From: Octopus sinensis
Taxonomy: Eukaryota
Assembly (NCBI RefSeq): GCF_006345805.1
Contig: NW_021833744.1
Location: 1 to 64,000, forward strand
Direction: 5' to 3'
DNA length: 64,000 bases
Shown here: positions 19,842 through 47,299 of the stretch, piece after piece
How positions within the stretch are numbered: the stretch's first letter is position 1
Layout of the letters: each line of letters opens with the position of its first letter
The notes under the pieces: model-generated
What the model was told of the DNA's origin: nothing
The model's database searches: none
What the model saw: the letters and a program-made list of their open reading frames with translations, nothing else
Translations under genes and position numbers: made by a program

Positions 19842-22800
19842 CTACATTGTCAGTTTAGAGTACGACGGGGGCGAAAATTTAATGCGGATTATTTTAATGA
19901 TGATTAATGGAATACAGGCCACCACAGTGAGCAAACCCACCTTCCAAAAAAAGTTTGGTCCCCCCATAAATTGCAAATCTAAATATAAACCACTGACACC
20001 ACAACCAAACACATCGGGAATCACATAAATCGAAGCAATATACGACAACATGCTCACAGTGCAGGGTATCAACATCCACCAAATCACACGATATGCAATC
20101 AGAGGGATCATAATCAACTCAGTCAGCAAGAGAGAAGTAAAAGTAATCCCCACAATGTGCGAAAACTCCCCAGAAAAGAGAGAAAATGATATAATCATGA
20201 TTGTACTCCCCTGGTAGACTCCAATCAAGACCCACCAAAACAAAGACTTTAGATTGAGCAGACGACCCTTCTGCATTTGTCTGTACAACTCGGGGTACTG
20301 CAGTGCCACCTCGGGACTCACATCCCTGTCAAACAACAATGATAAAATCGGCAGCTGTGCCAAAAATATAGAAAAACTAAAACTTAACCACAAAAAATAC
20401 AGAACAACCAAAATTCCGGGAAACAACGAGAAAGATATAAAATAAAGAACAGACGAAAAGATTGCTTGGAGAGTTGTCAATATTATCGACCGATGGATCA
20501 CAAATTGGGTAATAAGTGAACTTCTCAGGTAGCTATAACGTCCATGTACTAACAGAAGACGGCCAATATATTTGAATTGCGTCAACGAATAGTCCGCAGC
20601 CAACGCCGCCTGTTTTCCTTCCATTCCAAATATTCCAATACCCACATCCGCCTCCTGAATCATACTCACGTCATTCCCACCATCTCCTACCACAGTCAAC
20701 ATTCCTTCCAACCAATAGCACATATCTGCTTTTGAGAGTTGTGTTTTAACACTCGAGCTATCGTTGCTTTCTGGGCAGGCGAACAACGATACACCACCAC
20801 ACACGGCACAAGGCAAGCCAACTCAAAAAACTCTTTACTGTACTCCGGAGTGGACAACGAAGTGAATTTCTAAAAATACAAATAAAAACAACAACATCCA
20901 AACAATCACCGGAAATGACCAAAACCGAGTTTGTCCTCCGTCTGAACTCATTAAGAGACGGTCGGATGTCCTGATAGCTGAATATATCAGGGAATGTGTA
21001 GATTTGCTGGGACTTGGAAATAAGTCGGGAACTTTTGCCCACGGAAACTGCAGTCTCCTCCTTGTCTCCAGTCAACATCCAAATCTACGTTGACTAAATG
21101 TGCCACAAACTCGAATTCCTGCGTTTGTGAGTAGTTCTAAAGTGGATGGAGCCCCTTCTTGTAACTGATCCTCCACTCCTGTGAGACAAACCATGTCCAT
21201 ATTCCATTCCAATGTCTCCACCACTTCCGCACACTTCAATTCTCTGTTCACCATCGAGAAACGAGCAATGTCATGTCGAGACTTGATTATAGCCAGAAAA
21301 TACTTTAAATTCATAATATTGCTCTCTTGTCAGTTCCTTCTGTCCATATACCAATGTCCGCAGTCCTTCTCGAGCAAAATCAGAGATCTGAGAATATTTG
21401 GAGGACTCACCTGCTCTCTAATAGAGTCAGAAGAATTGACAATCCTGTTCATCACCGAATCCGCTCCTTTAAGTAGGAATAAAATACGTTTTGTCTTTCT
21501 ATTCTAAAAAATGATTTTTTATTACAAAACCTCCACAATTATTCCCATCCTCTTTCTGTATGAAGTGAAAGGAAATAACTCGATCAAGTCAAATTCGAGC
21601 TCCGAATCTGTTGGGGTTCTCAGTCTTAGGAGAGTTGGGGTTCTTTCGATTATAAAAAATCCGTGATTCTCTGCCCAGGACACCAAAGCCATCTCGTCGG
21701 GAGAAGCCGCGTTATATTTCCGTGAGTCATTATCAACCGGGGTAACATCATGGCATAATGATATAGCCATCATTGCCTCCATCAAACTCCCAACTCCACC
21801 ATTCTCTCTTATCAAAACAGGTATCTAAACATTCTAGAACATTCGAGAACATTCTGGGCACTCTCCGTCGTAAAGAAGTCAGTCTCCGTGGCGATTTTCC
21901 GCACAACCATAACATTTTGAGTAAGAGTCCCAGTTTTGTCACTCAAAAGAAAATCCACTCGACCCAACTGCTCAGGAATGGTGGTTGACCTGGCCACAGT
22001 CCCGGGAATATCCTTATCCAGCTGAATCATAAACGAATAAAGTATTTTAATCACATCCAGATTAACCCTCAGGCTTAGTGGAATTATTGACGAAAATAAC
22101 ATCAAAAATCTAAACCAATCCACCAACCAGCCAGAATACTTCTAAATAAAACGAAGACATCACCTGTTTAGTCAAATAAGTCTTCAAAATCATCACAGTA
22201 ACGGCTAAAGTCACCATCACGACAAAAAGGGCTTTAATCATTCTGTTTACCTCCAAATCGACCATCCCGATCTACAAATATGCCCTCAAATCTCACTTTG
22301 CTGGTTGGTTTAGATATATTAAGAGCAGCTCTGGTCTCCCTGCCTGTGTAGATGACAACACACGTGGCAGACTCGGATACCACCACTGTGTTGGCCCATA
22401 ATGTGTTTTCCAAGTTTATTGGCACACTCAGACCACCTCCAGACTAAAAAATATACAAAAAACAGTCAAAACTTGAGAAATTGTCCCATAAAATCGGCCA
22501 ATGTCCTTCACAGGCTCAGGAATCATCAATTCAAGGGAAATCAGCCCAATTGACTCATCCGAACTGAGTTTTTGAGTCATATCCACAGCCACACGGACTT
22601 TCCAGTCTGTTTCTCCATCCAACTGATCTGTCCTTATACAAATCCTTCCAGAACATTCCACAGTCCTTAAAAGAACAACATCCGCCGGCACCCTTTGATC
22701 CTAAAAATTATTTCAAGTCAAAAAAACGCGGGAAAGTCGAATAATGTTTCCAACAATTAATTCTGAGCTGGAAACTTGAGAGAATTGGCCAAGACTGTTG

Positions 22801-23342
22801 AGGACTCGATATTGCTGAGAATTGGCTTCCCGATCTCTCAAATGCCTTCTGAAATCGTCGATTCCTTCTTTCACCAAATTGACCGAAATTACAAACATCA
22901 AAAAATCAATAATGGCGGGAAATACCAGTGGGGTCCAAAAGGTGTAAAGACTGTTTATTCTAAGAGGTGGATACAGCTGGATAAAGGCCACAGCGAGGAA
23001 GAAAAAGTTCATAAACAGACTGAATTGATTATATAAAACCTATCAGATTTGAATTGGCAATTACTTTAGGAATGAAGCTCCAAAATGTGTATTTTTGATT
23101 TCTTGTTATGTTGGGAGGATATTTTACATTGAGGGGGGTTTGGAGGTTTAGGTGGATTGTCCGTGACTCAGAATTGGCTGGGATTTTACCACGTTTTAAT
23201 ATGTTTTTGCCACTTGGATTTAATAATTGAATTATTACTTGTGGACTATTCTTTTATATAGAAATTTTGGAGAGTATTTAGTAATTGGTTTACCATCAAG
23301 TGAATCACAGTCACCACTATGCAAAATAGGAATCATTTCCAT
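19842..23342 (-). CDS. ATP9: P4-ATPase phospholipid flippase, ATP9/Neo1 class, about 15 mini-introns (22-29 nt)
   Basis: Spliced product has [97 protein letters not shown] and the terminal SPPSYSKL. Start inferred at 23342 via a 26-nt first intron. Confidence 0.92.
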
Positions 23343-24875: not shown

Positions 24876-25625
24876 TTCTTTGTAGTATTTATATTTTTTG
24901 TTAGATTTAAAAATATTGTTTTATAATATTTAAAAATACAAATTAATTAGCTGAGGTACTCCTAATTATAAATGGAATATTTCCAATTTGATATTTATAT
25001 ATCGATGCACTCCCATCTTTTTATTCGCCTTTTATACTAAAAATTCAAGTCTACTCGAGGAAAATTAAATCTGTAATCAACTTTTGTAAATAATATATTT
25101 GGGGTGTTTTTAACATCTGGCTATTTGATTTATCAATATTATACACCTTCTGTGTTTATTAAATCTGTGGAGTCAATTAGTATTTCTCAGTAATTATTTT
25201 ATAAGTTTCTTTTGATGTAAAAGAATGGAATAACAACTTTGGTAACAAATTTTAGTAGTGGATAGCTTTTCAACGTTTTCCAGGTTATTAATGTGCTTTT
25301 GAAACAGTTTCTCGGTAGTAATAACGATTTTATAAAAAAAATTTCAAATGAAGATCAAATCAAAAGAGCAGCAGCATTTAAATTTTTAGCAACGTGACTT
25401 TAAAAATTTTAAAACTATTTAAAAAACTTCGATTTTTTTCAGTATTTTGAGGTTTTTGGGTGGTCGATTTCTATTTATTATATCTTTGTTAAGGAGATTG
25501 GGTCCCGCATGTCCGCTCTCACAGGCGACGCCCGCGAATCGAGATGGTTTTTCGAACGGATATCCTTCGCGATAGTACGCTCTAATTCTTTCTCGATCGC
25601 GTCGGCTTCCCGTTCATGAAGATTA

Positions 25626-26290
25626 CACTCCTCGACAAAAAAAATGATTCAAAATTCATATTTAGTTTTTCTTTGAAAATCTTATAAATATTATAATTTC
25701 AAAAAATTTAATAGATTAGTTGTAATTATTATTATTTAATTTTAATAAAATATTTGTTAATTACATTAATTTGGAAAAATTAAAAGCATGACACACAATA
25801 TGTTAGTATATGTCAGTGACAAAAAAATGATTCAAAATTAACCCATTCCTAATTAATATCTGGTATGCTCTCCTTTTGCCGTAAAAATTTCCCAGCATCG
25901 TTTTTTTAACTGATAGAATGAGTTTTTCAATAAAATGTTTTGGAATATATTCCCAAATATGGAGAAGTTCATGCTTTAGTTCTTTGACATTTTTTACATC
26001 GACTTTGCGTAATTCAGCCTTCATATGAGCCCATATATGCTCAATTGGGTTCAGATCATGTTTTCTTTTTCGAAATAATCCACAGTTAACTTAGCAGTAT
26101 GACAAGGTGCATTGTCCTGCTGAAAAATGAAATCGCAAAGTCCCATTTTTGCAACAGATCTCTGTAACTTGTTGGCTAAAAGGTTTAAATATTTCGCCGA
26201 ATTTAATGTCCCGTCAACAAAAACTAGTTCTCCAACCCCGTTAAAAGAAAAACATCTCCATACCATGAGTTTCCCTATTTTTTGTTTTGT
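25626..26290 (-). mobile_element. Tc1-like transposon 3' fragment
   Basis: MVWRCFSFNGVG, FQQDNAPCH and DLNPIEHIW. The motif gacaaaaaaatgattcaaaa is repeated at about 25633 and 25818 (IR-DR-like end). Confidence 0.8.
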
Positions 26291-26426
26291 AAAATTTCAG
26301 ACCAAATCAACCTGTTCCAATTGTAGTTTCGGATTAGTTTTTCTTATATGATTTTTCAATTAAAGGGCAGTTTCAAAAAAATAAATAATAATAAGAAAAT
26401 ATTATCGGAAAAATAGAGAAACCAAA

Positions 26427-26689
26427 TTAAAAAGAATTATTTTTTTCTTGAAAAATTTTATGTAACATTGCGAATTTTGGATATTCTGTTCGATGAGGAT
26501 CATCGTATTTTTTCTAAAAATATATAAGATTTTTAAAACCATCGGAAAACAGAAATGAAATGTCTTATTAGATTCATCCATGTCAGGAAAAAAGTTATCC
26601 AAATCGAAATCATGGTCATGTTCATTAAATTTGTTATCCTTTTCGTCTGTATCGCTGTTTTTCTTACTTTTGAATGCTCCGTTTCCCAT
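26427..26689 (-). CDS. Orphan small protein, array copy A1 (78 aa, 2 exons)
   Basis: MGNGAFKSKKNSDTDEKDNKFNEHDHDFDLDNFFPDMDESNKTFHFCFPM|KKYDDPHRTEYPKFAMLHKIFQEKNNSF*. A 26-nt GT-AG intron (26514-26539) sits at the same position in all paralogs. Confidence 0.7.
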
Positions 26690-27962
26690 TTGATTTAGCT
26701 AATATAATTTTAGAAACGGATATTTTATATTTAAAGTCGGAATAATGTAATAAAATAACTAATTTATTAATATTTTATCAAACAATAGAAACACCAGGCT
26801 AATCGGAATTGGTATTCTGTTTAATTCTACTCTTTTGTTTATCTAGAATTTTTGAGATTCTTTAATTTTTATTTAAAATTTTAGTTAATTTTGACTTAAA
26901 ATTTTATAATAAATAGTATAAAAATCCTTTTGGATCAACACCAACGATTCTAAAGAGACAGAAGAGACAAAAAGTCAACTACACAATTTTAACGTAATTA
27001 ATTTTTTTTCGTTTATTGCAGAATTGGTTTAAAAAAAAAATTCGACCTCAATATAAGTAGATCCTGGTACAACAAAATTGTGGTTTCAATTTTAGTTCAG
27101 AGACAAAGCATTTTTTAGGTTAATGATTCTAAATAATTTTAATAAACCTTTCGTTAAAAAATTAAATATAGTTCATATTTTAACTATTATCAAACACTCT
27201 AGGTATTAGACCACCGAAAAGAATATTCTCTTTTTGTAGTTTGAAATTTGATTTTTGAAAAACCAATATCAATTGTTCAGACATCTTATTATTAACGAGA
27301 ATCAAAGTTAGAATTAATTCTGTAAGAATAATATAAGTTTACAATAGTTAAATAAACAAATTAATTAGAAAATTGCTTTTTCATTAGTCAAAAACTACTA
27401 AAATATAAATTAGTTCTTGTCTGTTTATTAGATCAAGTGGAGTACACAATAAGGTCCTAAAACTACAATTATTGTTGACTCGTAATTTGTCGAGTCATTT
27501 TAATGTTCTATCACATATAAAACCATAATATTTTTAATACATTATTAAAAAAGATTATTGGTCAATATTGAAATAAGATTACTAAGATTGGGGATTTTCT
27601 ACGCTATTCTGCTTTCAAGTTTATCATTTCAGCCTGCATATATGGAGAATGAACAAAATTATCCCCTTCCATCTAAAATAAAATTTATTCCCAAATTGTA
27701 AAATGACCGGAATAGAGTATCCTTTGGCTAACCTGTTATAGTTACGTTAAAGTCGGGTAAATGCTAGGTCTATCTCAAAATTAAAAGCCTAGTTTAAATT
27801 AATAAAAAGTTAAATCGCTTGGAAAATTTTAACTTCAGGTCTTTTGTAAAGTGAGAGTGGAGAGTCAAAATATTTAGATTTTTTTCTCGATTTTTAGAAT
27901 TAGAAAAGATAAAAAATTCTTTAGAATGCATCTCAGATTAAAAAATTAACAATTTTTTAGCA

Positions 27963-28227
27963 TTAGTCACTATCTGGAAAAAAACCAAAAGAATTCTTTT
28001 TTATGTCGTAGTTTTTTATAAATTCGTTTATAGAAGGATCATCATCGTCTTCTTCCTAAAAATATATTATAAGATTTTTAAACAATCGGTAAATAGTAAT
28101 GAAATCTTTTATTGAATTCTGCCACTTCTAAACGAGCCAAAGCAGCTTCATCGTCATTTGGTTCATAATTGACATTCTTTTTGTCTGTATCTTTGTTTTC
28201 CTTAATTTTGAATGCTCTGTTTCCCAT
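27963..28227 (-). CDS. Orphan small protein, array copy B1 (78 aa, 2 exons)
   Basis: MGNRAFKIKENKDTDKKNVNYEPNDDEAALARLEVAEFNKRFHYYLPI|EEDDDDPSINEFIKNYDIKKNSFGFFPDSD*. 28-nt intron at 28056-28083. Confidence 0.72.
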
Positions 28228-28709
28228 TTGATTTAGCTAATATAATTTTAGAAACGGATATTTCATATTTATAGTCGGAATAATGTAACAAAATAACTAC
28301 TTTATTAATATTTTATCGAACAATAAAAACACCAGACTAATCGGAATTGGTATTCTGTTTAATTCTACTCTTTTGTATTATCTAGAAATATTGAGGTTCT
28401 TTAATTTTTATTTAAAATTTTTGTTAATTTTGACTTAAAATTTTATAATAAATACTATTAAAAAAGTCAACTACACAATTTTAACTTAATCAGTTTTTCT
28501 TTTTTTGTATTTTTCGGATTTGTTTTAAATATTACAAAATATAGAATCCGACCTCAATATAAGTAGATTTTTGTTTAAATAATTGTGGTTTCAATTTTAG
28601 TTCAATTACAGAGCATTTTGTAAGTTAATGGTTCTAAATAATTTTAATACATCTTCCTTTAAACAACTAAATTTAGTTCATATTTTGACTATTATAAAAC
28701 CCTCTAAGT

Positions 28710-30220
28710 CAGTGGTTCTCAAACTGGGGTACGCCACATACAATTGCCAAGAATCTTATTATACCGTGGATTAAAGTCATTTTTGAATGTTTCCCTGGCA
28801 ATAAATTCGGGCATATTGTTCGAAAAATTTGATGTTCAAATAAAACAATCAATAGAAGAATGCGAGATCTATCCGAAAACATAAAAGAACAAGTTTTTTT
28901 TCTGATTAATGATTATTAGGTCATTACTGAAATAAAAAGTGCTGCCTTTAAAAAATTTTCAATTCAATTGGATGAATCAACAGATGTAGAAAATTGCTCT
29001 CAGTTACTCGTTTATGTGCGATATATTTATATGGAAAATATTAAAGAAGAATTTTTGTTTAATTATTCCCCACTTTTAAACAGAAAAGGTTCTGATATTT
29101 TCGATGCAGTTAATTGTTTTTTGAAAATGAAGGTATATTTTTGATTTTTTACTTATGATAGGTTTATTGTGGCAAAATCTTAGTTCATGTTTCAAAGATA
29201 GAGCACCAGCAATGCTTCGATGTAACTCTGGTTTCCGAAGTAGATTACAATCTGTTAATCTAAATGTAAAACATTTTAACATCGTTATGCTTTTGCTGTG
29301 AAGACAATGCCTCTTGAACTTAAAGACGTTCTTGACGATGTTATTAAAATTGTCAATCATTCAAAAAAGTCCTTTAGATTCACGAATTCTTTATTTAATT
29401 TGTGAAGAATTTGGTTCAGATGAAAAGGTTTTACTATATCAAACAGCAGTTTGATGGTTATCCAAAGGAAATGTTTTTTCCAGAGTCCACAGTTGGAAAA
29501 ATGAAATTTATGAATATTTTCTTCGCGAAAATAAAAATTTATATTTATCAACGTTATCAAATATGTATTGGGGTGTAATGCTATCTTATTTAACAGACAT
29601 TTTTTTGCGAATTAATTCTTTGAATTTATCGGTACAAACTTAGGGAGCTATAATTGTTGACTTTTTAGAAAAAACAAAGTTTTTTGGAAATAATATAATA
29701 TTGTAGGTCTTTTCGTATGAAGTTCCAAATGTGGATAGATAATACAACAAATTCTAATTTAATATGTCTGATAAGTATAAATATAGTTTTAACAAAGGAA
29801 TGAGCAGAGAGGAAACATCGAGGGGCTAAAACACTCGCCTTCTTCCGGAAAGTACCGCATGCGTGTTGCCACGGAGAATAGCGATAGATATCCTCTGCAA
29901 TAGCTACAAAACCTCGCGTGGCTCTTCCGTCCTGTGGGCAAGTTCCCTTCCGATGTCGCTGATGAAGGCCGAGGTGTGAGGCTCGGCGACGCCTGATGCC
30001 TCCAATGCGATTTGTGCGAATATAAAGCGGCGTCCAAGTTCTTGTATTTTTTTAACTTTGGCCGTCTCAGCCTTTTCCGCAGCAGATCCGGGGGAATTGG
30101 CAGATGACATGATTGCCGATGGAGAGAAAGAATCGATGACAAGTTGAATGATAACATTTGCCATCTAAAATTAAATGAAATAGAAAATTTAAAACATCAT
30201 ATAACTTCCCATTTGCTTTG
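28710..30220 (+). mobile_element. hAT (Buster/ZBED5-like) element, truncated duplicate copy 1
   Basis: Starts cagtggttctcaaact after ctctaagt. Remnant FSIQLDESTDV..QLLVYVRY. Near-identical to the copies at 31764 and 39455. Confidence 0.85.
29770..30135 (-). mobile_element. CRE-like RLE retroelement 3' fragment (duplicate at about 36380-36740)
   Basis: SAAEKAETAK..FIFAQIALEASG..FISDIGRELAHRTEEPRE..LQRISIAILRGN. Confidence 0.7.
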
Positions 30221-31017
30221 GATAGTTCATATTTTGTCTATTATCAAATACTCTAAGTACTAGACCGCCAAAAAAGAAGATTCTTCTTTTGTAGTTTGAA
30301 ATTTGACATTTGAAAAACCAATATTAATTGTTCAGACATCTTATTATTAACGAGAATCAAAGTTATAACTAATTCTGTAAGAATAACATAAGTTTACAAT
30401 AGTTAAATATACAAATTAATTAGAAAATTGCTTTTTCATTAGTCAAAAACTACTAAAATATAAATTCGTTCTTGCCTGTTTATTAGATCAAGTGGAGTAC
30501 ACAATAAGGTCCTAAAACTACTATTTTTGTTGACTTGTGATTTGTCGAGTCATTTTAATGTTCTATCGTATATAAAATCATAATAATTTTAATACATTAT
30601 TAAAAAAGATTATTGGTCAATATTGAAATAAGATTACTAAAATTGGGGATTTTCTACGCTATTCTGCTTTCAAGTTTATCATTTCAGCCTGCATATATGG
30701 AGAATTAACAAAATTATCCCCTTCTATCTAAAATAAAATTTATTCCCAAATTGTAAAATGACCGGAATAGAGTATCCTTTGGCTAACCTGTTATAGTTAC
30801 GTTAAAGTCGGGTAAATGCTAGGTCTATCTCAAAATTGAAAGCTTAGTTTAAATTAATAAAAAGTTAAATCGCTTGGAAAATTTTAACTTCAGGTCCTTT
30901 TTAAAATGAGAGTGGAGAGTCAAAATATTTAGATTTTTTTCTTGATTTTTAGAATTAGAAAAGATAAAAAATTCTTTAGAATGCATCTCAGATTAAAGAA
31001 TTAACAATTTTTTAGCA

Positions 31018-31282
31018 TTAGTCACTATCTGGAAAAAAACCAAAAGAATTCTTTTTTTTGTCGTAGTTTTTTATAAATTCGTTTATAGAAGGATCATCAT
31101 CGTCTTCTTCCTAAAACTATATTATACGATTTTTAAACAATCGGTAAATAGTAAAGAAATCTTTTATTGAATTCTGCCACTTCTAAATGAGCCAAAGCAG
31201 CTTCATCGTCATTTAGTTCATATTTGACATCCTTTTTGTCTGTATCTTTGTTTTTCTTATTTTTGAATGCTCTGTTTCCCAT
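31018..31282 (-). CDS. Orphan small protein, array copy B2 (78 aa, 2 exons)
   Basis: MGNRAFKNKKNKDTDKKDVKYELNDDEAALAHLEVAEFNKRFLYYLPI|EEDDDDPSINEFIKNYDKKKNSFGFFPDSD*. Confidence 0.72.
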
Positions 31283-31763
31283 TTGATTTAGCTAATATAA
31301 TTTTAGAAACGGATATTTCATATTTATAGTCGGAATAATGTAACAAAATAACTACCTTATTAATATTTTATCGAATAATAGAAACACCAGACTAATCGGA
31401 ATTGGTATTCTGTTTAATTCTACTCTTTTGTATTATCTAGAAATATTGAGGTTCTTTAATTTTTATTTAAAATTTTTTTTAATTTTGAATTAAAATTATA
31501 TAATAAATACTATTAAAAAAGTCAACTACACAATTTAACTTAATCAGTTTTTCATTTTTTGTATTTTTCGGAATTGTTTTAAATATTACAAAATATAGAA
31601 TCCGACCTCAATATAAGTAGATTTTTGTTTAAATAATTGTGGTTTCAATTTTATTTCAATTACAGAGCATTTTGTAAGTTGATGGTTCTAAATAATTTTA
31701 ATATATCTTCCGTTAAACAACTAAATTTAGTTCATATTTTGACTATTATAAAACCCTCTAAGT

Positions 31764-34700
31764 AAGTGGTTCTCAAACTGGGGTACGCCAAATACAATTG
31801 CCAAGAATCTTATTATACCGTGGATTAAAGACATTTTTGAATGTTTCCCTGGCAATAAATTAGGGCATATTGTTCGAAAAATTTGATGTTCAAATGATAC
31901 AATCAATAGAAGAATGCGAGATCTATCCTAAAACATAAAAGAACAAGTTTTTTTTCTGATTAATTATTATTAGGTCATTACTGAAGTAAAAAGTGCTGCC
32001 TTTAAAAAATTTTCAATTCAATTGGATGAATCAACAGATGTAGAAAATTGCTCTCAGTTACTCGTTTATGTGCGATATATTTATATGGAAAATATTAAAA
32101 AGAATTTTTGTTTAATTATTCCCCACTTTTAAACACAAAAGGTTCTGATATTTTTGATGCAGTTAATTGTTTCTTGAAAAAAAGTATATTTTTGATTTTT
32201 ACTTATGATAGGTCTATTGTGGCGAAATCTTAGTCCATGCTTCAAAGATAGAGCACCAGCAATGCTTGGATGTAACTCTGGTTTCCGAGGTAGATTACAA
32301 TCTGTTAATCTAAATGTAAAAAATTTTAACATCGTTATGCTTTTGCTGTGAAGACAATGCCTCTTGAACTTAAAGACGTTCTTGACGATGTTATTAAAAT
32401 TGTCAATCATTCAAAAAAGTCCTTTAGATTCACGAATTCTTTATTTAATTTGTGAAGAATTTGGTTCAGATGAAAAGGTTTTACTATATCAAACAGCAGT
32501 TTGATGGTTATCCAAAGGAAATGTTTTTTCCAGAGTCCACAGTTTGAAAAATGAAATTTATGAATATTTTCTTCGCGAAAATAAAAATTTATATTTATCA
32601 ACGTTATCAAATATTTATTGGGGTGTAATGCTATCTTATTTAACTGACATTTTTTTGCGAATTAATTCTTTGAACTTATCGGTGCAAACTTAGGGAGCTA
32701 CAATTGTTGACTTTTTAGAAAAAATAAGGTTTTTTGGAAATAGTATAATATTGTAGGTCTTTTAGATACATTAATTCTTGTGGTACGTGCATGTTCGTTT
32801 CGACTGAGCTCTGTGAAACGTTACCTGAGGGCCTACCTACGAATCAATTGAAAAGAAAAGCCAGTGAGAACGTAGATGAAGTGGCCCAAGGACTGTCCAA
32901 TGCCAAAGAATTTGCCTTATCTCACAACCCTTCTCCTAAGTAGGCCACGAAGGCCTGCTTACCTTGCAAGCAGTAATCGATCAAGTCACAAGTTCCGACA
33001 AGATTCAGTGGGCCACCGAAGTGGTTCATTCTGCCAGAGAAAGATTTGGAAGGATTCCTCGCGGTGGATTCCCTCATATAACAAGGGCGTTCAATGAAAA
33101 GTTCCAGACCACTAAGTCAATATTGAATGTGAAGTCACTTGTGAGGAGTGGTGTGAAGGAGGACTCATATCTGTCAGGGGAAACCCAGAAAAATATGTTC
33201 TCTAAAACGGAAATTTCTCTTTTTGGAAAGTGCTCAATTGAGTTTAATTCCCAAATCGGACAAGTAAAATTAATTCCGCGCGATTTACGGACGCCGACCA
33301 GGAAAGTTCCCTATCAACTTCTTAATAAAGAAATTTTGACTGGTATAAATGCCTCGATTGGAGAATTTATGAAAGCAAATCAACCGGATAATCTCAATGA
33401 CATTGCTGACATTTTCTATGCTGGCCAACGAGCATATGATGCATTGACCCACCGAGTCTGTAAAAAAAGTGAATGGATTGGAAATATGAACGCGAAGCTT
33501 GACAAACTTAGGAAGGAACTCGAGTTGGTAACACCACTAACTAATAATGAAAAAACGAGAAAATCATTTAGTGAGGAATTGAGAGACATTTTGAGCAAAT
33601 ATGGATACCGGAAGGCCAAAAAAGGAGATCTATTTAGAATTGTTACTTGCATCCAGGATGAGGTAAAGATTGTTGAAAAAAAATTGGCAACCCATGAAGC
33701 AAGGAAAAAATTCCGGAGGGACAATATGTGTTTTGAACTTAACCGAAGGCAGTTTTACAGAAACTTGACTGAGAAACAGAAGAATACACAGTTTATGTTT
33801 GATTAGAGTCAGTGTCTTTCATTCTGGGAGAGTGTTTGGGCAAAACATGAGTCCATGGGGAACTCGATTTTATTGGATAACCGGGTGACTGGTGCCGAGG
33901 ACACAATTGCTGATTTTGGAAAAGACACAATTATTGAGATCATTAACCAGCTGCCAAATTGGAGGGCCTGTGGATGCGATGGCATATACAATTTTTTCTT
34001 GAAAAAGTTTACTGCGGTCCACGATGACCTCTGTAAGAACGTCGCGGATATCATATATGGAAAGTACACACCTGATGAGTGGTTCTACACAGGGATTACC
34101 CATCTTATTCCAAAAAAAAGAAATTTGTGACTCACCCAAGGACCTGAGGCCGATTACTTGCATGTCAAATCTACATAAACTTGTAACAAAATGTGTGAAC
34201 AGAAAATTGACGGACTACATTGAAGCATACAATTTGATCAGCGACAATCAATTGAGGACGAGAAGAATGCGCCAAGGAGCCAAAGAGCAGGCATTGCTCA
34301 ACCAATGTGTCCATCAACAAAATGGGAATAATTTGCCTTCTGCTTGGATTGATGTAAAGAAGGCTTTTGACTCTGTCGATCACGAGTTTCTGTATCAAGT
34401 CCTCGATAACTCCGGCCTCCCCCATTGGATTGTGGATTTTATCAAGGCAATTGTCACGAAATGGAAGATCAAGTTGAGATTTAATCAAAAAGATATTGGT
34501 GAAGTAAAAATGGAGAGAGATCTTGCAGGGTGATTCTTTATCGCCGCAAATCTTTGTTCGTGTCCTGGACCCCCTGAGTAGAATATTGAATGCGAAATTT
34601 CCAAATGTGCTAGTGGACAAGTCAGGCAATAGTCCTCGGGTATACTCAACGAACCACTTGTTGTTCATGGACGACCTAAAATTGTTTGCTCGGAAGGAAG

Positions 34701-36990
34701 ACACTGTAATGAGAATGATGGCCGAGGTTGATCAATTCTTTCGAACTGCCGGATTGGAGCAAAACGCTGAAAAGTCTGCAACTAATCTTGAAGGGTTGAG
34801 TAGCAAAGCTAAGCTGCTTGACGGGATTGATGGCTATCGTTACCTTGGAGTATTGGAAGACAAAGATAGCAGAGTTTTGAAGAATGACACGATGAACTCA
34901 ATATCGGATGCAATCGAGGAGAGAATTAATAGCCTGGCAGACTCGAAGCTAAATTCTGCAAATTTTTTCAAGGCTGTCAATGAGCATGCATTATCGTTGT
35001 ATAATTACTACATCGGGCTCATTGATATCGAACCATGAGAATATCGACAAGAATGTGCGCAAGATTTTGATACGCCACCAAATTACACACGAAACCTGGA
35101 AACAAACATAGACTTTATCTTTCAAGAGACCGACTAGGAAGAGGATTGGTTTCTGTTGTGCATAAAAGCGAGCGAATGCTTCTTGAATTCCTCAAGGACA
35201 TTGAGATGAAGGCTTCCTATTGTTTGAGGAGAGAAGGAATCCTGAAGGCCGTCAGATTCAAGAAAACTCATATGGCCACTATCAAGGAATTCCTATGCAG
35301 AAAGTACCAATTTGCAACTCCGGAAAGCCTCAAACTGAATGTTCTGAAGGATTTGCAAGGAAAGCACTTACTTGAACAGATACGGAAAAAGCCACTTCAC
35401 TCGATTTTGTTTAATTGCTATGATGATTTGGACGTGGATCTGAAAGAATCGTCCTGGTGGTTATCTCATGGGAACAACTCTCCAAGGTCGGAGGGAATGC
35501 TGTGCATGGTTCAGGACCGCAACTTATTCTTTGACAACGGTGGTAGTTGTTGCAACCATTGCAACGCCGCCAAAAAAACTGTGGATCATCTTGCTACAAG
35601 ATGTGGCAGAATGTTGAACAGTGATTACCTACGTCGCTACAATGAGGTTGTAAGGTGCATGCACCTGCACATCTGTCGAAAATATGGAATAAAACAGTCT
35701 CGGAAGTTAAAGACCCACTCCGTTCAGTCGACTGTCTCTAATGAGGTGGTCGAAATACGTGTGGACACTACCATCAAGACGGACACTATAGTGAGTAATA
35801 ATAAACCGGACATTTTTGTCTTCGACAAAGTTCGGAATATTATTACTCTTATCAAAATTGGGATTACTTCTCAGCAATCCTTGAAGCAAGTAGAAGTAGA
35901 AAAATTACATAAATATGACCTTTTGGCGAACGAATTGAAGGTAATCCATAATGCAAAAGTGAATATCATACCTTTGGTTATTACGTGGGATGGAATAACA
36001 TCCAGATTCTATAAACATTACCAGAACTCCTTGCAAGTCCAGGAATCTACGCGAGCTTATATCCAGTCAATCGTGATAAAGAGAACATTGGAAAGCATGC
36101 GCCCGGAGTATAAACTCCTTCCTACAGCGACGAAGCATGCAATTAAATCGGACTCGAGAACAATCACAAAAGTGGCCTGCCCTGTAAAATGGATAAATGT
36201 ACCCGTCGAAGACACTTGCTCGGGCTCGAAGAGGAGGAGAATTGACTGAAAGCAGACGCAATAATTAAAAATCAATTTTATCTGGACTTTTCAAATAAAT
36301 TAAAATAGTTTGTAGGTCTTTTCGTATGAAGTTCCAAATGTGGATAGATAATACAACAAATTCTAATTTAATATGTCTGATAAGTATAAATATAGTTTAA
36401 ACAAAGGAATGAGCAGAGAGGAAACATCGAGGGGCTAAAGCACGCGCCTTCTTGCGGAAAGTACTGCATGCGTGTTGCCACGGAGAATAGCGATAGATAT
36501 CCTCTGCAATAACTACAAAACCTCGCGTGGCTCTTTCGTCCTGTGGGCAAGTTTCCTTCCGATGTCGCTGATGAAGGCCGAGGTGTGAGGCTCGGCGACG
36601 CCTGATGTCTCCAATGCGATTTGTGCGAATATAAAGTGGCGTCTGAGTTCTTAGTATTTTTTTAATTTTGGCCGTCTCAGCCTTTTCCGCAGCGGACCCG
36701 AAGGAAGTGGCAGATGACATGATTGCCGATGGAGAGAAAGAATCTATGATAAGTTGAATGATAACATTTGCCATCTAAAATTAAATGAAATAAAAAATTT
36801 AAAACATCATATAACTTCCCATTTGCTTTGATTGAAAAATGAAATTGAAAAATATATACCTGAAATTAATGAAGTAGATCTTAAATTTTTGTCAAAAATT
36901 TAAAATTGGATTATTGGATAGATAGTGTTCAATAATTATAAAATACAGTTTGAAAGACAGTATAATTTTAGAATCTGTTTTTCTAAAAAA
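31764..36990 (+). mobile_element. hAT duplicate copy 2, carrying nested R4-like and CRE-like insertions
   Basis: Same sequence as the 28710 copy (first TIR base changed) and resumes after 36322. Right end approximate. Confidence 0.8.
32764..36309 (+). mobile_element. Near full-length R4/NeSL-like RLE non-LTR retrotransposon
   Basis: RT motifs (DLRPITCM, IDVKKAFDSV, LQGDSLSP, HLLFMDDLK, YRYLG), CCHC finger and RLE (KPDIFVFDK..KLHKYDLL). 13-bp TSD ttgtaggtctttt at 32751-32763 and 36310-36322; the empty site is visible at 29701. A few frameshifts. Confidence 0.92.
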
Positions 36991-37220
36991 AATAATAATC
37001 CTAAGTCAAAAATGAATACAATTAAAAAAACATCTGCACTTTTTGATTGATCAGTTCCGGCTTAGGAAGATAAGTTGAGTCGTAGCTGATATCTTAAAAA
37101 TAAAATTTTTGTTGACAGATGTTAAATAAGGTCATTCTAGATTTTTTACTGATAAGATAAAAAAAAATAAAAAATTTGCTTTAGAATTAGAAAAAATTAT
37201 CGGAAAATAGAAAAACCAAA

Positions 37221-37486
37221 TTAAAAAGAATCATTTTTTTCTCGAAAAATTTTATGTAACATTACGAATTTTGGATATTCTGTTTGAGAAGGATTATCTT
37301 TTTTTTCTAAAAAATATATTAGAAGATTTTTAAAACCATCGGAAAACAGAAATTAAATCTTTTATTAGATTCTTCCATGTCAGAAAAAAAATAATCCAAA
37401 TCATAATCACAGTCATTTATATTAAATTTGTTATCCTTTTCGTCTGTATCGCTGTTTTTCTTATTTTTGAATGCTCCGTTTCCCAT
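37221..37486 (-). CDS. Orphan small protein, array copy A2 (exon 2 one A short in a homopolymer)
   Basis: MGNGAFKNKKNSDTDEKDNKFNINDCDYDLDYFFSDMEESNKRFNFCFPM|KK(K)DNPSQTEYPKFVMLHKIFREKNDSF*. The A8 run needs A9 to keep the A1 frame. Confidence 0.6.
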
Positions 37487-38707
37487 TTGATTTAGCTAAT
37501 ATAAATTTAGAAACGGATATTTTATATTTAAAGTCGGAATAATGTAATAAAATAACTAATTTATTAATATTTTATCAAACAATAGAAACACCAGGCTAAT
37601 AGAAATTGGTATTCTGTTTAATTCTACTTTTTTGTTTATCTAGAATTTTTGAGGTTCTTTAATTTTTATTCAAAATTTTTGTTAATTTTAACTTAAAATT
37701 TTATAATAAATAGTATAAAATTCCTTTTTGGGTCAACACCAATGATTCTAAATACAAATTCGAATATTATTAAGAGAGAAAAAGTTAACTACACTATTTT
37801 AACGTAATTAGTTGTTTTTCGTTTTTTTCGGAATTGGTTTTAAAGAAACGAATTCGATTTCAATATAAGTAGATTTTGGTATAATAAATTGTGGTTTCAA
37901 TTTTAGTTCAAAGACAAAGCATTTTATAGGTTAATGGTTCTAAATAATTTTAATAAACCTTTCGTTAAAAAATTAAATATAGTTCATATTTTGACTATTA
38001 TCAAACACTCTAAGTATTAGACCGCCAAAAAGAAGATTCTTCTTTTGTAGTTTAAAATTTGACATTTGAAAAACCAATATTAATTGTTCAGACATCTTAT
38101 TTTTAACGAGAATCAAAGTTATAACTAATTCTGTAAGAATAATATAAGTTTACAATTGTTAAATACACAAATTAATTAGAAAATTGCTTTTTCATTAGTC
38201 AATAACTATTAAAATATAAATTAGTTTTTGTCTGTTTATTAGATCAAATGGAGTACACAATAAGGTCCTAAAACTACAATTTTTGACATTATTAAAAAGA
38301 TTATTGGTCAATATTGAAATAAGATTACTAAGATTGGGGATTTTCTACGCTATTCTGCTTTCAAGTTTATAATTTCAGCCTGCATATATGGAGAATGAAC
38401 AAAATTATCCCCTTCTATCTAAAATAAAATTTATTCCTAAATTGTAAAATGACCAGAATAGAGTATCCTTTGGCTAACCTGTTATAGTTACGTTAAAGTC
38501 GGGTAAATGCTAGGTATCTCAAAATTGAAAGCATAGTTTAAATTAATAAAAAGTTAAATCGCTTGGAAAATTTTAACTTCAGGTCCTTTTTAAATTGAGA
38601 GCGGAGAGTCAAAATATTTAGATTTTTTTCTCGATTTTTAGAATTAAAAAAGATAAAAAAAATTTTTAGAATGCATCTCAGATTAAAGAATTAACAATTT
38701 TTTAGCA

Positions 38708-38972
38708 TTAGTCACTATCTGGAAAAACGACAAAAGAATTCTTTTTTTTGCCGCCGTTTTTTAGATATTTAGATATTTTTTCGGTTAAATAAGGATCATC
38801 GTCTTCTTCCTAAAAATATATTATAAAATTTTTAAACCATCGGTAAAACGTAATGAAATCTGTTATTTAATTCTGCCAGGTCTAAAAAATAATCCAAATC
38901 AGATTCATTGTCATTTAGTTCAAATTTGTCTGTATCTTTGTTTTCCTTATTTTTGAATGCTCTGTTTTCCAT
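38708..38972 (-). CDS. Orphan small protein, array copy B3 (mosaic; Gly2 replaced by Glu)
   Basis: MENRAFKNKENKDTDKFELNDNESDLDYFLDLAELNNRFHYVLPM|EEDDDPYLTEKISKYLKNGGKKKNSFVVFPDSD*. Indels relative to B1 preserve the frame. Confidence 0.7.
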
Positions 38973-39454
38973 TTGATTTAGCTAATATAATTTTAGAAAC
39001 GGATATTTCATATTTATAGTCGGAATAATGTAATAAAATAACTACTTTATTAATATTTTATCGAACAATAGAAACACCAGACTAATCGGAATTGGTATTC
39101 TGTTTAATTCTACTCTTTTGTATTATCTAGAAATATTGAGGTTCTTCAATTTTTATTTAAAATTTTTGTTAATTTTGACTTAAAATTTTATAATAAATAC
39201 TATTAAAAAAGTCAACTACACAATTTTAACTTAATCAGTTTTTCTTTTTTTGTATTTTTCGGATTTGTTTTAAATATTACAAAATATAGAATCCGACCTC
39301 AATATAAGTAGATTTTTGTTTAAATAATTGTGGTTTCAATTTTAGTTCAATTACAGAGCATTTTGTAAGTTAATGGTTCTAAATAATTTTAATACATCTT
39401 CCTTTAAACAACTAAATTTAGTTCATATTTTGACTATTATAAAACCCTCTAAGT

Positions 39455-41055
39455 CAGTGGTTCTCAAACTGGGGTACGCCACATACAATTGCCAAGAATC
39501 TTATTATAACGTGGATTAAAGACATTTTTGAATGTTTCCCTGACAATAAATTAGGGCATATTGTTCGAAAAATTTGATGTTCAAATGATACAATCAATAG
39601 AAGAATGCGAGATCTATCCGAAAACATAAAAGAACAAGTTTTTTTTCTGATTAATTATTATTAGGTCATTACTGAAGTAAAAAGTGCTGCCTTTAAAAAA
39701 ATTTCAATTCAATTGGATGAATCAACAGATGTAGCAAATTGCTTCCAGTTACTCGTTTATGTGCGATATATTTATATAAAAATTATTAAAGAAGTATTTT
39801 TGTTTAATTATTCCTTACTTTTAAACACAAAAGGTTCTGATATTTTTGATGCAGTTAATTGTTTCTTGAAAAAAAGTATATTTTTGATTTTTACTTATGA
39901 TAGGTCTATTGTGGCGAAATCTTAGTCCATGCTTCAAAGATAGAGCACCAGCAATGCTTGGATGTAACTCTGGTTTCCGAGGTAGATTACAATCTGTTAA
40001 TCCAAATGTAAAAAATTTTAATATCGTTATGCTTTTGTTGTGAAGACAATGTCTCTTGAACTTAAAGGCGTTCTTGACGATGTTATTAAAATTGTCAATC
40101 ATATTAAAAAAGTCTTGAATTAATAAATTCTTACGAGTCAAAAATTTTATTTGAATCTGCACAATTAATTGAATTGAATTTTCGAGTGCCGGACGTTTAC
40201 CGAGGCACTTGGCTATGAATGACATCATACGGAGGACCCTCGACTCGGCGGGATTTCCTTCGGTCCTCGAACCACCGGGTCTTGACCGTGTGACGGGAAA
40301 CTTCCTGACGGGATGACCCTTTTTCCTTTTGAGGGCGGAAAAGGTTTCGTATAGGACGCAACCTGCTGGGATACTTTTTCTGCTTCACATCTAATTTCGT
40401 GTGCTCTGGAGGCTAAATCTCCTGCTAAAAAGGCTGAAGATTTAAAGCTATCCAAATATTCTGCCCTTTCGGATGAGTTTTTCGTGATGCCGATAGCGGT
40501 GGAGACGTCAGGTGCTCTTGGTCCAAAGACGGAAAAATTCCGCCGCAAGCTCGGGGCCAAAATTTCCGTGCGCACTCACAATCCTCGGGAATGGACTGAC
40601 TTCTTTAGCGGTTCTCGATCGCCGTTATCCGAGAGAATAGTTTGCCAATCTGCCAGGCTGCTGGCCTTCCTTTCGATTAATCTTTTATCACTTTTGCTTG
40701 AACTTTTATTTTAAACAAATTGGTGTAAAATGATATCAAAATATCACCACATTAAATTTTATATAATTGATTTTTTGCTTTTGTTTCCGACTACATATCT
40801 CTGCGAACAAGGATTTTCATCGTTGTTTAGTTTAAAATCAGTTCATCGTGCGAGGCTGAATGTTGTTAATGATATTCATGTGTGTTTTTCGTCAAAGGAT
40901 CAAGAAATCGATAGATTAGTGGTTGATAAACAACACCATCCATCTCATTAATTAAATAATTTTGTTTCTTAATTTTTTAAAAATCGATAAGGGGTACGCG
41001 AAAAATTATTTAGATGGCAAGGGGTACGCAATGCAAAAAAGTTCGAGAACCACTG
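39455..41055 (+). mobile_element. hAT (Buster-like) element with both ends, internally deleted, with a CRE-like insert at about 40185-40690
   Basis: TIRs cagtggttctc(a/g)aact and a perfect 8-bp TSD ctctaagt (39447-39454, 41056-41063). C-terminal FPTTYLCEQGFS..HHPSH. Confidence 0.92.
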
Positions 41056-41189
41056 CTCTAAGTATTAGACCACCGAAAAGAATATTCTTCATTTTTGGTT
41101 TGAAATTTGACATGTTTAAAAACAAATATTAATTGTTCAACATATAATTCTATTCTTCCAATCCGATCGTTGTCCGCTGGAGGTTAATC

Positions 41190-41775
41190 TCCTCCTTTTA
41201 GAGGAGGAATTAACCAACACAACTTTTTAATCATCTGTCTCCAGGTTAGTTGCGACTCTTTTTCCCTCATTCTCCATATTATCTTCATACGAATGACTTG
41301 CTTTAATTAAAAGGCTACTGGCTGAATTTATTTCCTCTTCAGTGATTCGGATCCCATGCCTGTGCTCAACAATCATACTCTCCAGTGTTTTCTTCAATAC
41401 AATTGACTGTATATAGGACTGAATTCCGTCTTTGATAACCAACTTTTTAATGTAGTTCTTAAAAAACTTGTAAAAGAGCCCACCCCAAGTCAAAACCAGT
41501 GGACAATGGACAACTCCCCTGTCAATAGATCGTATTTATGGCATTTCTCGATTTCGACCTTCTTCAAGCGGTCGTGGGAAGTAATTCCAACTTCGATAAG
41601 AGTGATTTCATTCTTAATTTTGTCATACACAAATATTTCAGGCTTGTTGCACTGAATATTCGTGTCTGTAACTATTTGAGAATCTACAAGTATTTTGACA
41701 TTTTGCGTGGATATGATTGATTGGACAGAATACCCCTTCAATTTTTTGATTTTGCTGATTGAGTACTTCCTACTT
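41190..41775 (-). mobile_element. R4-like RLE 3' fragment
   Basis: NKPEIFVYDKIKNEITLIEVGITS..KYDLL and YIQSIVLKKTLES. Confidence 0.8.
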
Positions 41776-42889
41776 AATTGTTCAATAACCTAATATTTTC
41801 ATATTTAATGTCCGAATATTGTTCTAAAATTATTAATATTCTGCGAAACAATAGAAAAACCAAACTAATCAGTTGCTAGTTTTTTAATTTTTTATATAGA
41901 AATTTCGGAGATTCTTTAATTTCTATTTACAGTTTTTGTCAATTCTAACTTGAAATTATTCTAATAAATAATATAACATTTTAATTCACTGACTTTAATT
42001 CAAGAATAATGATTTGGATCTTTATAAAATGATTTTTTCAATGAGATGATCAAACAGATGTTCCAACATGATTACATTTTTGAAACAAATAATAACTTCT
42101 GCAGTCATAAACAGTGATTAATAATTCTTGTCTATTATTTAAATTTTGATAAAATTTCCAGAAATTGGTATTCTTTTATTCAAATAACCTATTGTTGCAA
42201 TAAATTGCAAATTTTTAATAAATTTTATGTTTTCAATCAAACCAAATCGGAGTGTATTTTATTGAAAATGTTTAAATTCTTTATATTCAAGCGAAAAAAA
42301 ACTCTATGTATTCTTTAAATTGAAAAGAAACTCAAAAATATCTAAAATGCAAACAACATTTTAATTCTGAGGATGACAAAATTATTGTTTTGTGACTATC
42401 TTTAACGTAATTTCATTATTTTTTGTTTATAAATGACTCAAGAATATCTATCTACTAACAATAGATAATCCACTAAATTTTCCATATTGACCTAAATTTT
42501 TCACATTTTTTTATAAAAACCTTAAATCGAAGTATAAAATAAGAACTTTCAATTTTACAATTGTTAAAGTCATCAAGAAAATTACAAAATGTAAACAGAA
42601 CTATTGTGTGTGTCATGCTAGGTTTTTTAATTAAATCTAATCTCGAACTTTGATGTTTGAGCAAACAGATAACTTTATTTCAAAATGCTAAAAAATTAAA
42701 TAAAGACTGAATATTGAATTTTTAATCCTTTTTAATCGAAAAGAAAACTGAGAGTAATTATAAGTATTTTATTGAAAAATACGTTTGCAAACAAAAATCT
42801 TTAAGTAAAAATTTAAAGTCGTCCGACCAGTAATTCTGAAAAAAATTAAATGCGGTTAATCTTTAAATTCAATTTATTAATAAAAAGTA

Positions 42890-43330
42890 ACTAATTAATT
42901 GCCTAACTAAGTCCTGAGCCTTCCAAGTGAACAAAGGGTGGCACTCCACGCATCTTCTTTCTTCCTTTTCATTTCTGACTCTAAACTTTCTCGAAGATAC
43001 AGTTAAACTACTCTCACAGACTAAATTTCATGAAATATTTGGATTGACCAGCATCAAACGAGATACTCTCCAGAGTCCTCTTAAAAACAATTGAATCCAT
43101 ATAAATATGTAGAGTCTTATCTACACCCAACTGTTTTAAGTACAATATTTGGTATTTGGTGACCAGTCCATTTAATTTCATCACACGCAGACTTTAAGCT
43201 GGTGCATTATCCCTACCTCAATTGCAAATAAGTCATACTTCCTCTTTTTATCCAATTCCACTGTCCGCAAACGATCTACGCACTTCCACAATAAAAATCT
43301 CCCCGGTGATTTTAGCGTGGACTATTGTGG
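42890..43330 (-). mobile_element. R4-like RLE 3' fragment, decayed
   Basis: GEIFIVEV..DRLRTVELDKKRKYDLFA..SIVFKRTLESISFD. Confidence 0.7.
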
Positions 43331-43621: not shown

Positions 43622-44187
43622 ATGAACATTCGCTTAATAATTCAAATTTTTTTTCTTTTTGTAGATTTGGGAATAAATGTTGTTTTCAACATAATCAACT
43701 TTAACAGCAAAACATTTCTTGTTATACAAATGTACAATAAATACCACATTTTAGACTCCAATGTTTTTTGATCGTAATGCAAATATTTATTATATTTTTA
43801 TTAATGATGAGAACTCCATTTTTCCAAGCAGGAGCAATGTCAATTCTCATTAGAAAATTCCGTTGGACATTATCAACAATTACTCTTTATTTAGCAATCA
43901 CTATGACATTCAACATACTTAATTATGTTTTCGTATATATAATACATATATAGATATTTCAACAGTGCGACTCTATTTCCACGCAAGCAATATGCAAGGA
44001 CAGTGGAAAAGTAATATTGGCAATGAATGCAATCCAAAAATTAAGTATTTAGTAAAGTAAATTTGTTATAGTGTCTGTACTATACTATCAAAATGTGAAA
44101 AGAACTGCTTTCATTCTTTGCGATTCAAAACTGTTTGAAGAATCAAAATGGTTTAGTAGAGAACTCAATAATAAATTATTATATTGA
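43622..44187 (+). CDS. TMEM138: Transmembrane protein 138 (ciliary, Joubert-syndrome family)
   Basis: Introns 43732-43754, 43927-43953 and 44045-44071. Product includes FVDLGIN, FFQAGAMSILIRKFRWTL..LYLAIT and QKLMSVLYYQNVKRTAFILCDSKLFEESKWF. Confidence 0.85.
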
Positions 44188-44385
44188 CAAGACATTTTCT
44201 TTAAACATTTTGTATTTAATAACTGTCTTAATAAACATAAAATAAACCGGCAAAATATTTCTACATATTTTATTTTCAGCATTCAAAATGTTCAAAAAGC
44301 AACACAAAAAGCCTAAAACGACATCCCTCAAAATATTTAGCAAAAAAGTCAAAAAACAAATCAAAAAATAACAAGGTACAAATGA

Positions 44386-45666: not shown

Positions 45667-46689
45667 TACAACAAAATATATATTTTATTTATTTGATTGA
45701 ATAATAAAATAATTAATGAACTATTGAAAAATTATAAATCAATTTGAAAATTACTTTCAAAATAATATAAAAATACTGTTCCAGGCTCCAGCTGGTTTTA
45801 GTAGACATTAGCCATATGTTATTGAGTAAATAAAGGATGCTATTTGTTGGTATAAATTTGAGTTTTTGTATTTGAAAATTTACTGTTCGCGCAAAAAATG
45901 GCAATCAATATTCTTAAAGATTTGTGTGATTCATTTTTAGAAGAAGCAATTTTTCTCCTGTGGTCATAAATGAAAGCCGTGGCAAGATTATGAGACAATA
46001 TTTCTTAATCCTGTTTTTAATTTTTTGCAGTCTAGATAAAAAAACAATCCTAATTAGAATCGCTTAATTGCAATTCCCGACAATACAAATTGAATTTGAT
46101 ATAATTCGATTTTTTAACTAAATTATCTAATTAAAAAAGTCCAAATAGTCAGTGATTTTCCTTTTTGAGTGCTTTAATCAGACTTTGATGGAAAAATGAA
46201 CTAAAATTTAAAAGAATTTTGTACAAATTGTGTCTAAAAAATTTAAAATTTTTTAAAGTATCAGTAATTATCTTTCATCAAATTGATAAATTCCGAGCTA
46301 AGGTTTATTCAATTTATTTTGTCAAGAAAATTTTATTTTTATTCATTAAATCTATAGACTATAGAGTCTTGAGTATGTAATCAACGATTGTTTTGTTAAT
46401 TTTTAATGTCTAATTCACTTAATTAGGTGTCAAGCTGTCATTTGGTGCAATGTTCCACGCATCTAAGATTCCAAAAGTGGGTATTTACTGCGGAATTGAA
46501 TTGTCTAAAAAATTCACATATTAGAAAGAGAAAAATAGATGAAATTCATTTTTGGTACTACTATTAGTTATCATTAACTGTTTTGTACATAAAATAAAGT
46601 GTGTGCTATAAATCAGTATGGCTCTGCGGGAAAGACTATAATAATTCACTTTTATTTATCGACGTTTCCAATGTGAATTGAATTAAAAA

Positions 46690-47295: not shown

Positions 47296-47299
47296 AATT

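Follow-up and report, generated by a model that had tools for sequence, protein, structure and literature searches.

A tandem array of replacement-rich two-exon microprotein genes in probable dicyemid DNA from the Octopus sinensis assembly

Positions 1 to 64,000 of contig NW_021833744.1 in the Octopus sinensis assembly GCF_006345805.1 (forward strand; this whole stretch is called the window) carry an array of five copies of a ~700-nt unit on the minus strand, each unit containing a two-exon gene for a very small protein. The contig belongs to an animal with miniature introns, probably a dicyemid, that was co-assembled with the octopus. The array genes are very probably real protein-coding genes. 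They fall into two types, A and B, and show an excess of amino-acid replacements that is real yet moderate and is carried by the B lineage, on which, at the least, positive selection has probably acted. In the reading that we prefer, at a rough probability of 0.4, the array would encode small, acidic binding proteins of the cytosol, a family that evolves by birth and death and by bouts of diversifying selection, changing with a partner inside the parasite's own cells.

A first-pass annotation, made from the sequence alone and unaware that the DNA is a parasite's, had proposed five same-strand, two-exon genes with one common intron position. All five were located, each with one phase-0 GT-AG intron of 26–30 nt:

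26427..26689, minus strand: gene A1, ATG at 26689; exon 1 26540-26689, intron 26514-26539 (26 nt), exon 2 26427-26513; 78 amino acids (aa)
27963..28227, minus strand: gene B1, ATG at 28227; exon 1 28084-28227, intron 28056-28083 (28 nt), exon 2 27963-28055; 78 aa
31018..31282, minus strand: gene B2, ATG at 31282; exon 1 31139-31282, intron 31111-31138 (28 nt), exon 2 31018-31110; 78 aa
37221..37486, minus strand: gene A2, ATG at 37486; exon 1 37337-37486, intron 37307-37336 (30 nt); exon 2 frameshifted as it stands in the window
38708..38972, minus strand: gene B3, ATG at 38972; exon 1 38838-38972, intron 38810-38837 (28 nt), exon 2 38708-38809; 78 aa, with Glu2 for Gly2

The expected product length of ~78 aa holds for the spliced products of A1, B1, B2 and B3, while A2 as assembled has a frameshift directly past the acceptor and ends after 64 aa. 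Run X1 provides a short-read contig (depth 92) that covers A2, extends into its own downstream flank and reads exon 2 in frame. It differs from the assembly at eight places, of which five restore the exon 2 frame and the remaining three are amino-acid changes common to a copy on another contig (C8750, see below). An intact version of A2 is therefore present in the run X1 sample. Exon 2 of B3 is likewise covered by a contig of this run; the middle of B3 exon 1 has little contig cover and the A1 and B2 regions have about half the contig depth of A2 and B3, neither of which can be interpreted. Almost nothing of the array genes is present in short-read runs X2 and X3. Amino-acid identity is 90% for B1/B2, 79% for A1/A2, 64–67% for B3 against B1/B2, and 44–60% between A and B types. 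The alignment has 20 invariant columns, ten of them within the first 15 residues.

The pattern of insertions and deletions fits coding sequence. The exon 1 lengths of A1, B1, B2 and B3 (150, 144, 144 and 135 nt) and their exon 2 lengths up to a shared Asn-Ser-Phe (75, 60, 60 and 69 nt) differ by steps that are all multiples of three, which bears out, for the four intact copies, the annotation's statement that indels between the types keep the frame. The intron lengths (26, 28, 28 and 28 nt, and 29 nt on C8750) differ by non-multiples of three, and in the flanks only one of 13 indels is a multiple of three, some of the one-base flank indels being possible assembly errors. When the frames are read unspliced, four of the five stop inside the intron and A1 reads on to 96 aa. 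Two other splicing possibilities were considered. A coding exon with a signal peptide farther upstream (GT..AG candidates of 19 and 25 nt) was rejected, as the shared upstream region has no in-frame ATG. A 20-nt GT..AG in exon 2 of the A copies, which the B copies do not share, is unlikely to be an intron.

The assignment to a dicyemid is based on intron size and on the separation from host genes. The assembly comprises 2.7 Gb overall, and the array contig is gene-dense with tiny introns. A neighbouring gene encodes an ATP9 flippase whose identity to named animal ATP9s does not exceed 54% (among the 120 of 2577 matches listed). When four guide proteins were aligned to it with splicing allowed, 19 candidate introns emerged; 12 of the 13 backed by at least three guides are 22–27 nt long and one is 50 nt, and four of these 13 begin with GTTT, as the array intron does. 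The chromosome-size contig C1 holds another ATP9, which has kilobase introns and matches an octopus protein at 100% identity in one exon. N-myristoyltransferase (NMT) was also found in two copies, the host's, with long introns, on C28, and the parasite's own, with a 31-nt intron, on the small contig C8320. Thus, animal genes with 22–30-nt introns occur in this cephalopod sample apart from the genes of the host. Introns this small were found among 51 animal genomes only in myxobolid myxozoans and Dicyema, as far as the available part of that survey goes (PMC13644364), and dicyemids are reported to inhabit cephalopod kidneys and to have a median intron of 27 bp (PMC6543705, PMC2222250). Dicyemid genes with 22–30-nt introns and reduced GT..AG signals are described in these sources (PMC6543705, PMC2222250, PMC13644364), and the array genes are alike; their intron is ordinary for its organism.

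The replacement excess was first noticed in two pairs of copies. Recounting reproduced the figures of the annotation: B1 and B2 differ at 8 of 77 codons, all non-synonymous; A1 and A2 differ at 17 of 74 compared codons, 16 non-synonymous and one silent; and exon 1 of the two A genes has 15 differences in 150 nt, compared with 1 in the first 110 nt upstream. The argument built upon these figures, that coding DNA diverges faster than its flank, did not survive for the pairs cited, as it had used only the conserved first 110 nt and the contrast mostly goes with a wider flank. Farther upstream A1 and A2 differ at 33/369 nt (8.9%) and 20/286 nt (7.0%) versus ~10% in the coding sequence (CDS), and B1 and B2 differ at 8/237 nt (3.4%) in the CDS versus 74/2214 nt (3.3%) in the flank. 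In neutral simulations, neither pair is significant alone (B1/B2, P = 0.16; A1/A2, P = 0.11).

It is the more distant comparisons and the family as a whole that bear the signal. With a substitution spectrum estimated from 184 flank differences, none of the 25 codons that are changed between B1 and B3 has a silent change only, against a neutral mean of 4.8 (P 0.0025), a pairwise test that is independent of any tree; for B2/B3 the count is 0 of 24 changed codons against ~4.8 expected. At 0-fold sites B1 and B3 differ at 21 of 134, compared with 57 of 1555 flank sites. The four A-B pairs gave P values from <0.01 to 0.03, depending on the alignment, and all ten pairwise comparisons lean toward replacement excess.

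Codon models were fitted to a tree of six sequences, all five genes of the array plus a single member of the C8750 pair, with an alignment that omits the start codon and break codons and leaves the ambiguous middle of exon 2 unaligned between A and B. Model M0 with flank-derived rates gave a dN/dS ratio (omega) of 2.9 (p 0.0013). Omega was 2.0 at kappa 1 (p 0.06), 2.5 at kappa 2 (p 0.006) and 3.2 at kappa 4 (p 0.0003); HKY with kappa 2 is the best-fitting mutation model, and omega exceeds 1 significantly in three of the four models. M2a was preferred over M1a (p 0.0004), with ~15% of sites at omega 7, among which codons 23 and 26 stand out. As a frame control, the true frame gave omega 2.88 and the five other frames 0.73–1.77; nine tests on flanks gave 0.80–1.38, all with p > 0.3. 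Restriction to the four intact genes raised omega to 3.6 (p 0.003) and to the B copies alone to 9.5 (p 0.0015). The dN/dS analysis that the annotation had called for returns omega above 1 overall (2–3.3), at p 0.0003–0.06 according to the mutation model, and no significant excess for the A copies alone. Its proposal of diversifying selection stands for the family as a whole, where the excess is frame-specific, and falls for the two pairs from which it was drawn.

The proteins themselves are small and acidic, with isoelectric points of 4.4–5.6 in the five array copies. Residues 1–12 are basic (net +2 to +5) and residues 13–40 acidic (net −4 to −10). Neither a signal peptide nor a membrane span is predicted, the highest 15-residue hydropathy, 0.30, being too low for either. 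An AlphaFold model of exon 1 shows coil followed by one helix at 28–47, at low confidence. On the B1/B2 stem two Asp residues of the acidic-aromatic patch before this helix have become Ala, which may represent a changed binding surface.

Membrane tethering by N-myristoylation, as proposed at first, is weakly supported. Gly2, Asn3 and Lys7 are present in four of the five array copies and fit the modification, Lys7 and Lys9 are invariant, and the parasite has an NMT gene of its own. The residue at position 6 speaks against it: it is Phe in all six sequences, where N-myristoylated proteins have a small residue, usually Ser, and a check against the classical PROSITE-type pattern found no match in any of the six. 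The Ser6/Lys7 rule for N-myristoylation (bioRxiv 10.1101/2021.06.22.449375, in its available part) gives the context for both observations. Moreover, Gly2 is lost outside the four copies, to Glu in B3, which starts Met-Glu as the annotation had noted, and to Arg in both C8750 copies. That the array proteins are myristoylated is thus doubtful on the strength of their predicted N-termini. FFAT- and LIR-like motifs were considered as well and are not conserved across copies.

The units and their surroundings record repeated copying and insertion, for which the following features are relevant:

26690..26830, minus strand: conserved upstream block, about −140 to −1, before every copy
32770..36250, plus strand: broken non-LTR retrotransposon (LINE) between the B2 and A2 units; RVT_1 E 2.9e-13; left edge approximate
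39455..41055, plus strand: decayed hAT-type element in the spacer upstream of B3, with terminal inverted repeats (TIRs) and an 8-bp target duplication
41793..41980, minus strand: what is left of a sixth unit, namely its upstream region at 70–74% identity, cut off by a retroelement fragment

The near-identical upstream region that the annotation had described precedes each copy as the conserved block, which is likely to be promoter or 5′ untranslated region; Rfam gave no match at E<=1 in 25500-42500, this block included. The invariant N-terminal block of the proteins adjoins it, and conversion could account for this block no less than constraint on the protein. The element at 39455..41055 is presumably a hAT, to judge by its hallmarks. 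Truncated hAT copies start at 28710 and 31764, and empty sites lie at 27197, 30251 and 38008. On the minus strand the order is the remnant, the intact-ended hAT, B3, A2, the LINE, a truncated hAT, B2, a truncated hAT, B1 and A1, which implies an old A/B duplication and, after it, segmental copying of the hAT-B-A block. A fragment of a restriction-endonuclease-type retrotransposon is nested in the hAT element at 40180-40670. A ~530-nt repeat with a 122–125-aa minus-strand frame occurs at 29688-30220, 36293-36830 and 46966-47297 of the window; we take it to resemble the end of a non-LTR element.

Copies exchange pieces, and the units are mosaic. The first 480 nt upstream of B1 differ at 3 positions from B3 and at 12 from B2, yet the B1 CDS is close to that of B2. 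One short-read contig joins a B1-type exon 1 end and intron to exon 2 of B3; its six differences coincide with the six that separate B1 from B3 there, three of them identified by position. The hybrid would be 81 aa long, and a strict rule of 78 aa was dropped as unproven. B3 was also considered as an A/B chimera and rejected, as A-like and B-like codons are interleaved in it, along with private changes.

The genome-wide search for paralogs suggested by the annotation yielded only seven near-full copies in the assembly. Besides the array there are two hAT-borne A-type copies on C8750, with ~180 nt of upstream DNA, and a decayed copy on C8698 without most of exon 1; the host chromosomes hold no copy above chance, in searches that score the best candidates only. 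Both C8750 copies start Met-Arg and are frameshifted as assembled, in a contig with many single-base indels. The hAT elements that captured them (C8750:94505-96672 and 101626-103803) lie ~7.1 kb apart in a 74-bp satellite and are of Pack-type, with TIRs and an 8-bp target duplication around the A-type gene and its upstream region. The array units are not bounded by TIRs and target duplications and match nothing in Pfam over cut-off, so that a transposon nature, a possibility which the annotation had kept in view, applies to the two C8750 copies only. A tandem repeat of 93–95 bp is common to window positions 10492-11376 and C8750:72669-81200, at 90–95% identity.

No homologue was found outside the assembly, in keeping with the annotation's description of an orphan, fast-evolving two-exon microprotein family. 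Pfam searches on the exons gave nothing over cut-off (one DUF6714 match at E 0.068). A query with A2 exon 1 against 1.84 billion representative sequences had no match at E <= 0.001, and the exon 1 alignment against 5.8 billion proteins (24–88 aa only) gave three candidates, none scored. PDB sequences gave two chance matches at E 0.6, and none with residues 1–20 alone; ESM Atlas gave no usable match. Each search used either a single exon or the A1 frame read without splicing, and the coverage of dicyemids looks poor, for which reasons the term orphan is provisional. Literature searches on dicyemids, positive selection and orphan or tandem genes, and on the N-terminal motif, turned up no description among the entries listed, although the supplements of the Dicyema genome papers might list the cluster. 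The multicopy clusters described for D. japonicum, in the available part of the source, are endocytosis genes and LINE ORF2 (PMC6736024). The array family appears undescribed, although parasites are already known to have tandem orphan genes that evolve fast.

Taken together, these observations can be assembled into a mechanism. The variable acidic-aromatic patch and the helix would form a binding surface, and the basic N-terminus, with or without myristate, would hold the protein at membranes. Since there is no export signal, the simplest partner lies inside the parasite's own cells. The changing partner could be an intracellular enemy: a virus, a selfish element or a hyperparasite, for instance a microsporidian. 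Dicyemids do have hyperparasites of that last kind, as reported in the available part of PMC8262960. Such a conflict partner is possible and is put forward tentatively, with odds somewhat lower than those of the reading as a whole.

Several points weigh against this reading. The conflict role is something that we infer. The 26–30-nt intron is predicted from a splice-compatible structure, the structure model is of low confidence (predicted local distance difference test score, pLDDT, 63; predicted template modelling score, pTM, 0.26), and no named dicyemid is among the 120 of 2577 ATP9 matches listed. The codon models were run with our own code on an alignment set by hand. Under the least favourable mutation model, kappa 1, the signal is weak (omega 2.0, p 0.06), omega rises to 1.77 (p 0.037) in one of the reverse-strand frames, and counting changes by codon position without a model (34/34/18) yields p 0.051 only. 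The A copies alone carry no signal (omega 1.6, p 0.40). A purifying site class was not detected (p0 near 0), so that any conserved function is hypothetical, and the mosaic units weaken both the site models and the flank comparisons.

Some of these points favour a different account, in which the A copies drift and the B copies had a single adaptive burst, through episodic neofunctionalisation or relaxed constraint after duplication and with no ongoing conflict. The A-only omega not different from 1, the missing purifying class, the several dead or captured copies and the twofold loss of Gly2 all speak for it. Against it, replacements occurred along the B3 branch as well as along the stem of B1 and B2, B1/B2 add eight out of eight, and the ten pairwise comparisons all lean the same way. 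We regard this account as rather unlikely, though it is the closest competitor of the intracellular binder.

A protein that faces the host is less likely still. It would be acylated and exported without a signal peptide, as the Leishmania HASPs are, and would contact the octopus renal epithelium or immune factors of the urine. The parasite origin of the DNA agrees with this, as do the Gly2, Asn3 and Lys7 of four array copies, the parasite NMT, and the general build of small, hydrophilic, tandem genes that are conserved at the ends and vary in between, like those described for the HASP locus (PMC5271408, available part). HASP export, however, is reported there to require both myristoylation and palmitoylation, and the array proteins are free of Cys up to residue 25, have Phe6 and, in B3, lack Gly2. 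The most far-reaching version, with lipid-anchored proteins that reach, without a signal peptide, the surface by which the parasite holds on to the octopus kidney, and with a repertoire built by positive selection, exon swapping and hAT capture, would make the array the first arms-race family of the Dicyemida; it is quite improbable.

A similarly low standing is given to a gamete or germ-line protein in sexual or meiotic conflict within the hermaphroditic gonad. The intracellular location fits, and reproductive proteins are often small, fast-evolving tandem orphans, but the gametes encounter each other within a single parent cell and selfing is presumably common, which weakens sexual conflict. 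Finally, it is very improbable that the units are non-coding, as a repeat or as transposon cargo, and have frames that are open by chance: the hAT setting and frameshifts of both C8750 copies, the 96-aa unspliced frame of A1 and low ESM Atlas family recognition scores, which do not settle reality, are outweighed by frame-keeping exon indels beside intron-length changes that are not multiples of three, by a frame-specific omega, by the low number of near-full copies, and by a hAT insertion that occupies a spacer of the array where other units hold empty sites.

Comparison with known systems places the intracellular binder reading in context. The Leishmania HASP/SHERP locus, in the available part of its description (PMC5271408), is likewise a parasite tandem cluster of small, hydrophilic, lineage-specific proteins with N-terminal Gly, conserved ends and a variable middle. 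The array has no sequence relationship with it that was found and no N-terminal Cys or amino-acid repeats, its genes are two-exon, and it varies by point replacement and exon exchange. Proteins of the MARCKS/BASP1 type share the Met-Gly start, the basic N-terminal cluster, the acidic hydrophilic body and the scarcity of predicted structure; they have Ser6 and conserved single-copy N-termini, in contrast to Phe6, loss of Gly2 in two of six sequence types and omega >1 in the array. The tandem duplication, pseudogenes, copy exchange, transposon-rich surroundings and omega above 1 are familiar from birth-and-death orphan families of parasites under diversifying selection. Members of those families are typically secreted or on the surface with a signal peptide, which the array proteins do not have.

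Other genes of the window were noted. The ATP9-type P4-ATPase (19845-23340, minus strand) has ~15 mini-introns, and its last third is G/T-rich on the coding strand, with several frame-keeping introns there. Directly upstream of it lies an intronless monothiol glutaredoxin (Pfam PF00462; 23412-23753, minus strand). A NASP-like SHNi-TPR histone chaperone gene with mini-introns occupies 44450-45700 (minus strand), and short open frames with intron-sized gaps at 42870-43320 and 43720-44250 (both minus strand) are probably more small spliced genes, with no Pfam match over cut-off. A nearly intact LINE at 55813-58601 (plus strand) has endonuclease and reverse transcriptase frames and a C-rich coding strand.

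Dicyemids are very reduced animals with about 5,000 genes according to the available part of PMC6736024. In such a genome, an adaptively changing and expanding family marks a rare place where selection favours novelty. The array also exemplifies a class of genes, with 78 aa and a 26–30-nt intron, that finders of open reading frames miss and that are liable to be misfiled as octopus DNA. If the octopus-kidney surface reading were true, the dicyemid 'commensals' would be in active molecular conflict with their hosts. The molecular dealings of dicyemids with their hosts or with their own parasites are almost unstudied, and these five short genes give a handle on the source of the pressure, be it the octopus, hyperparasites or reproduction.

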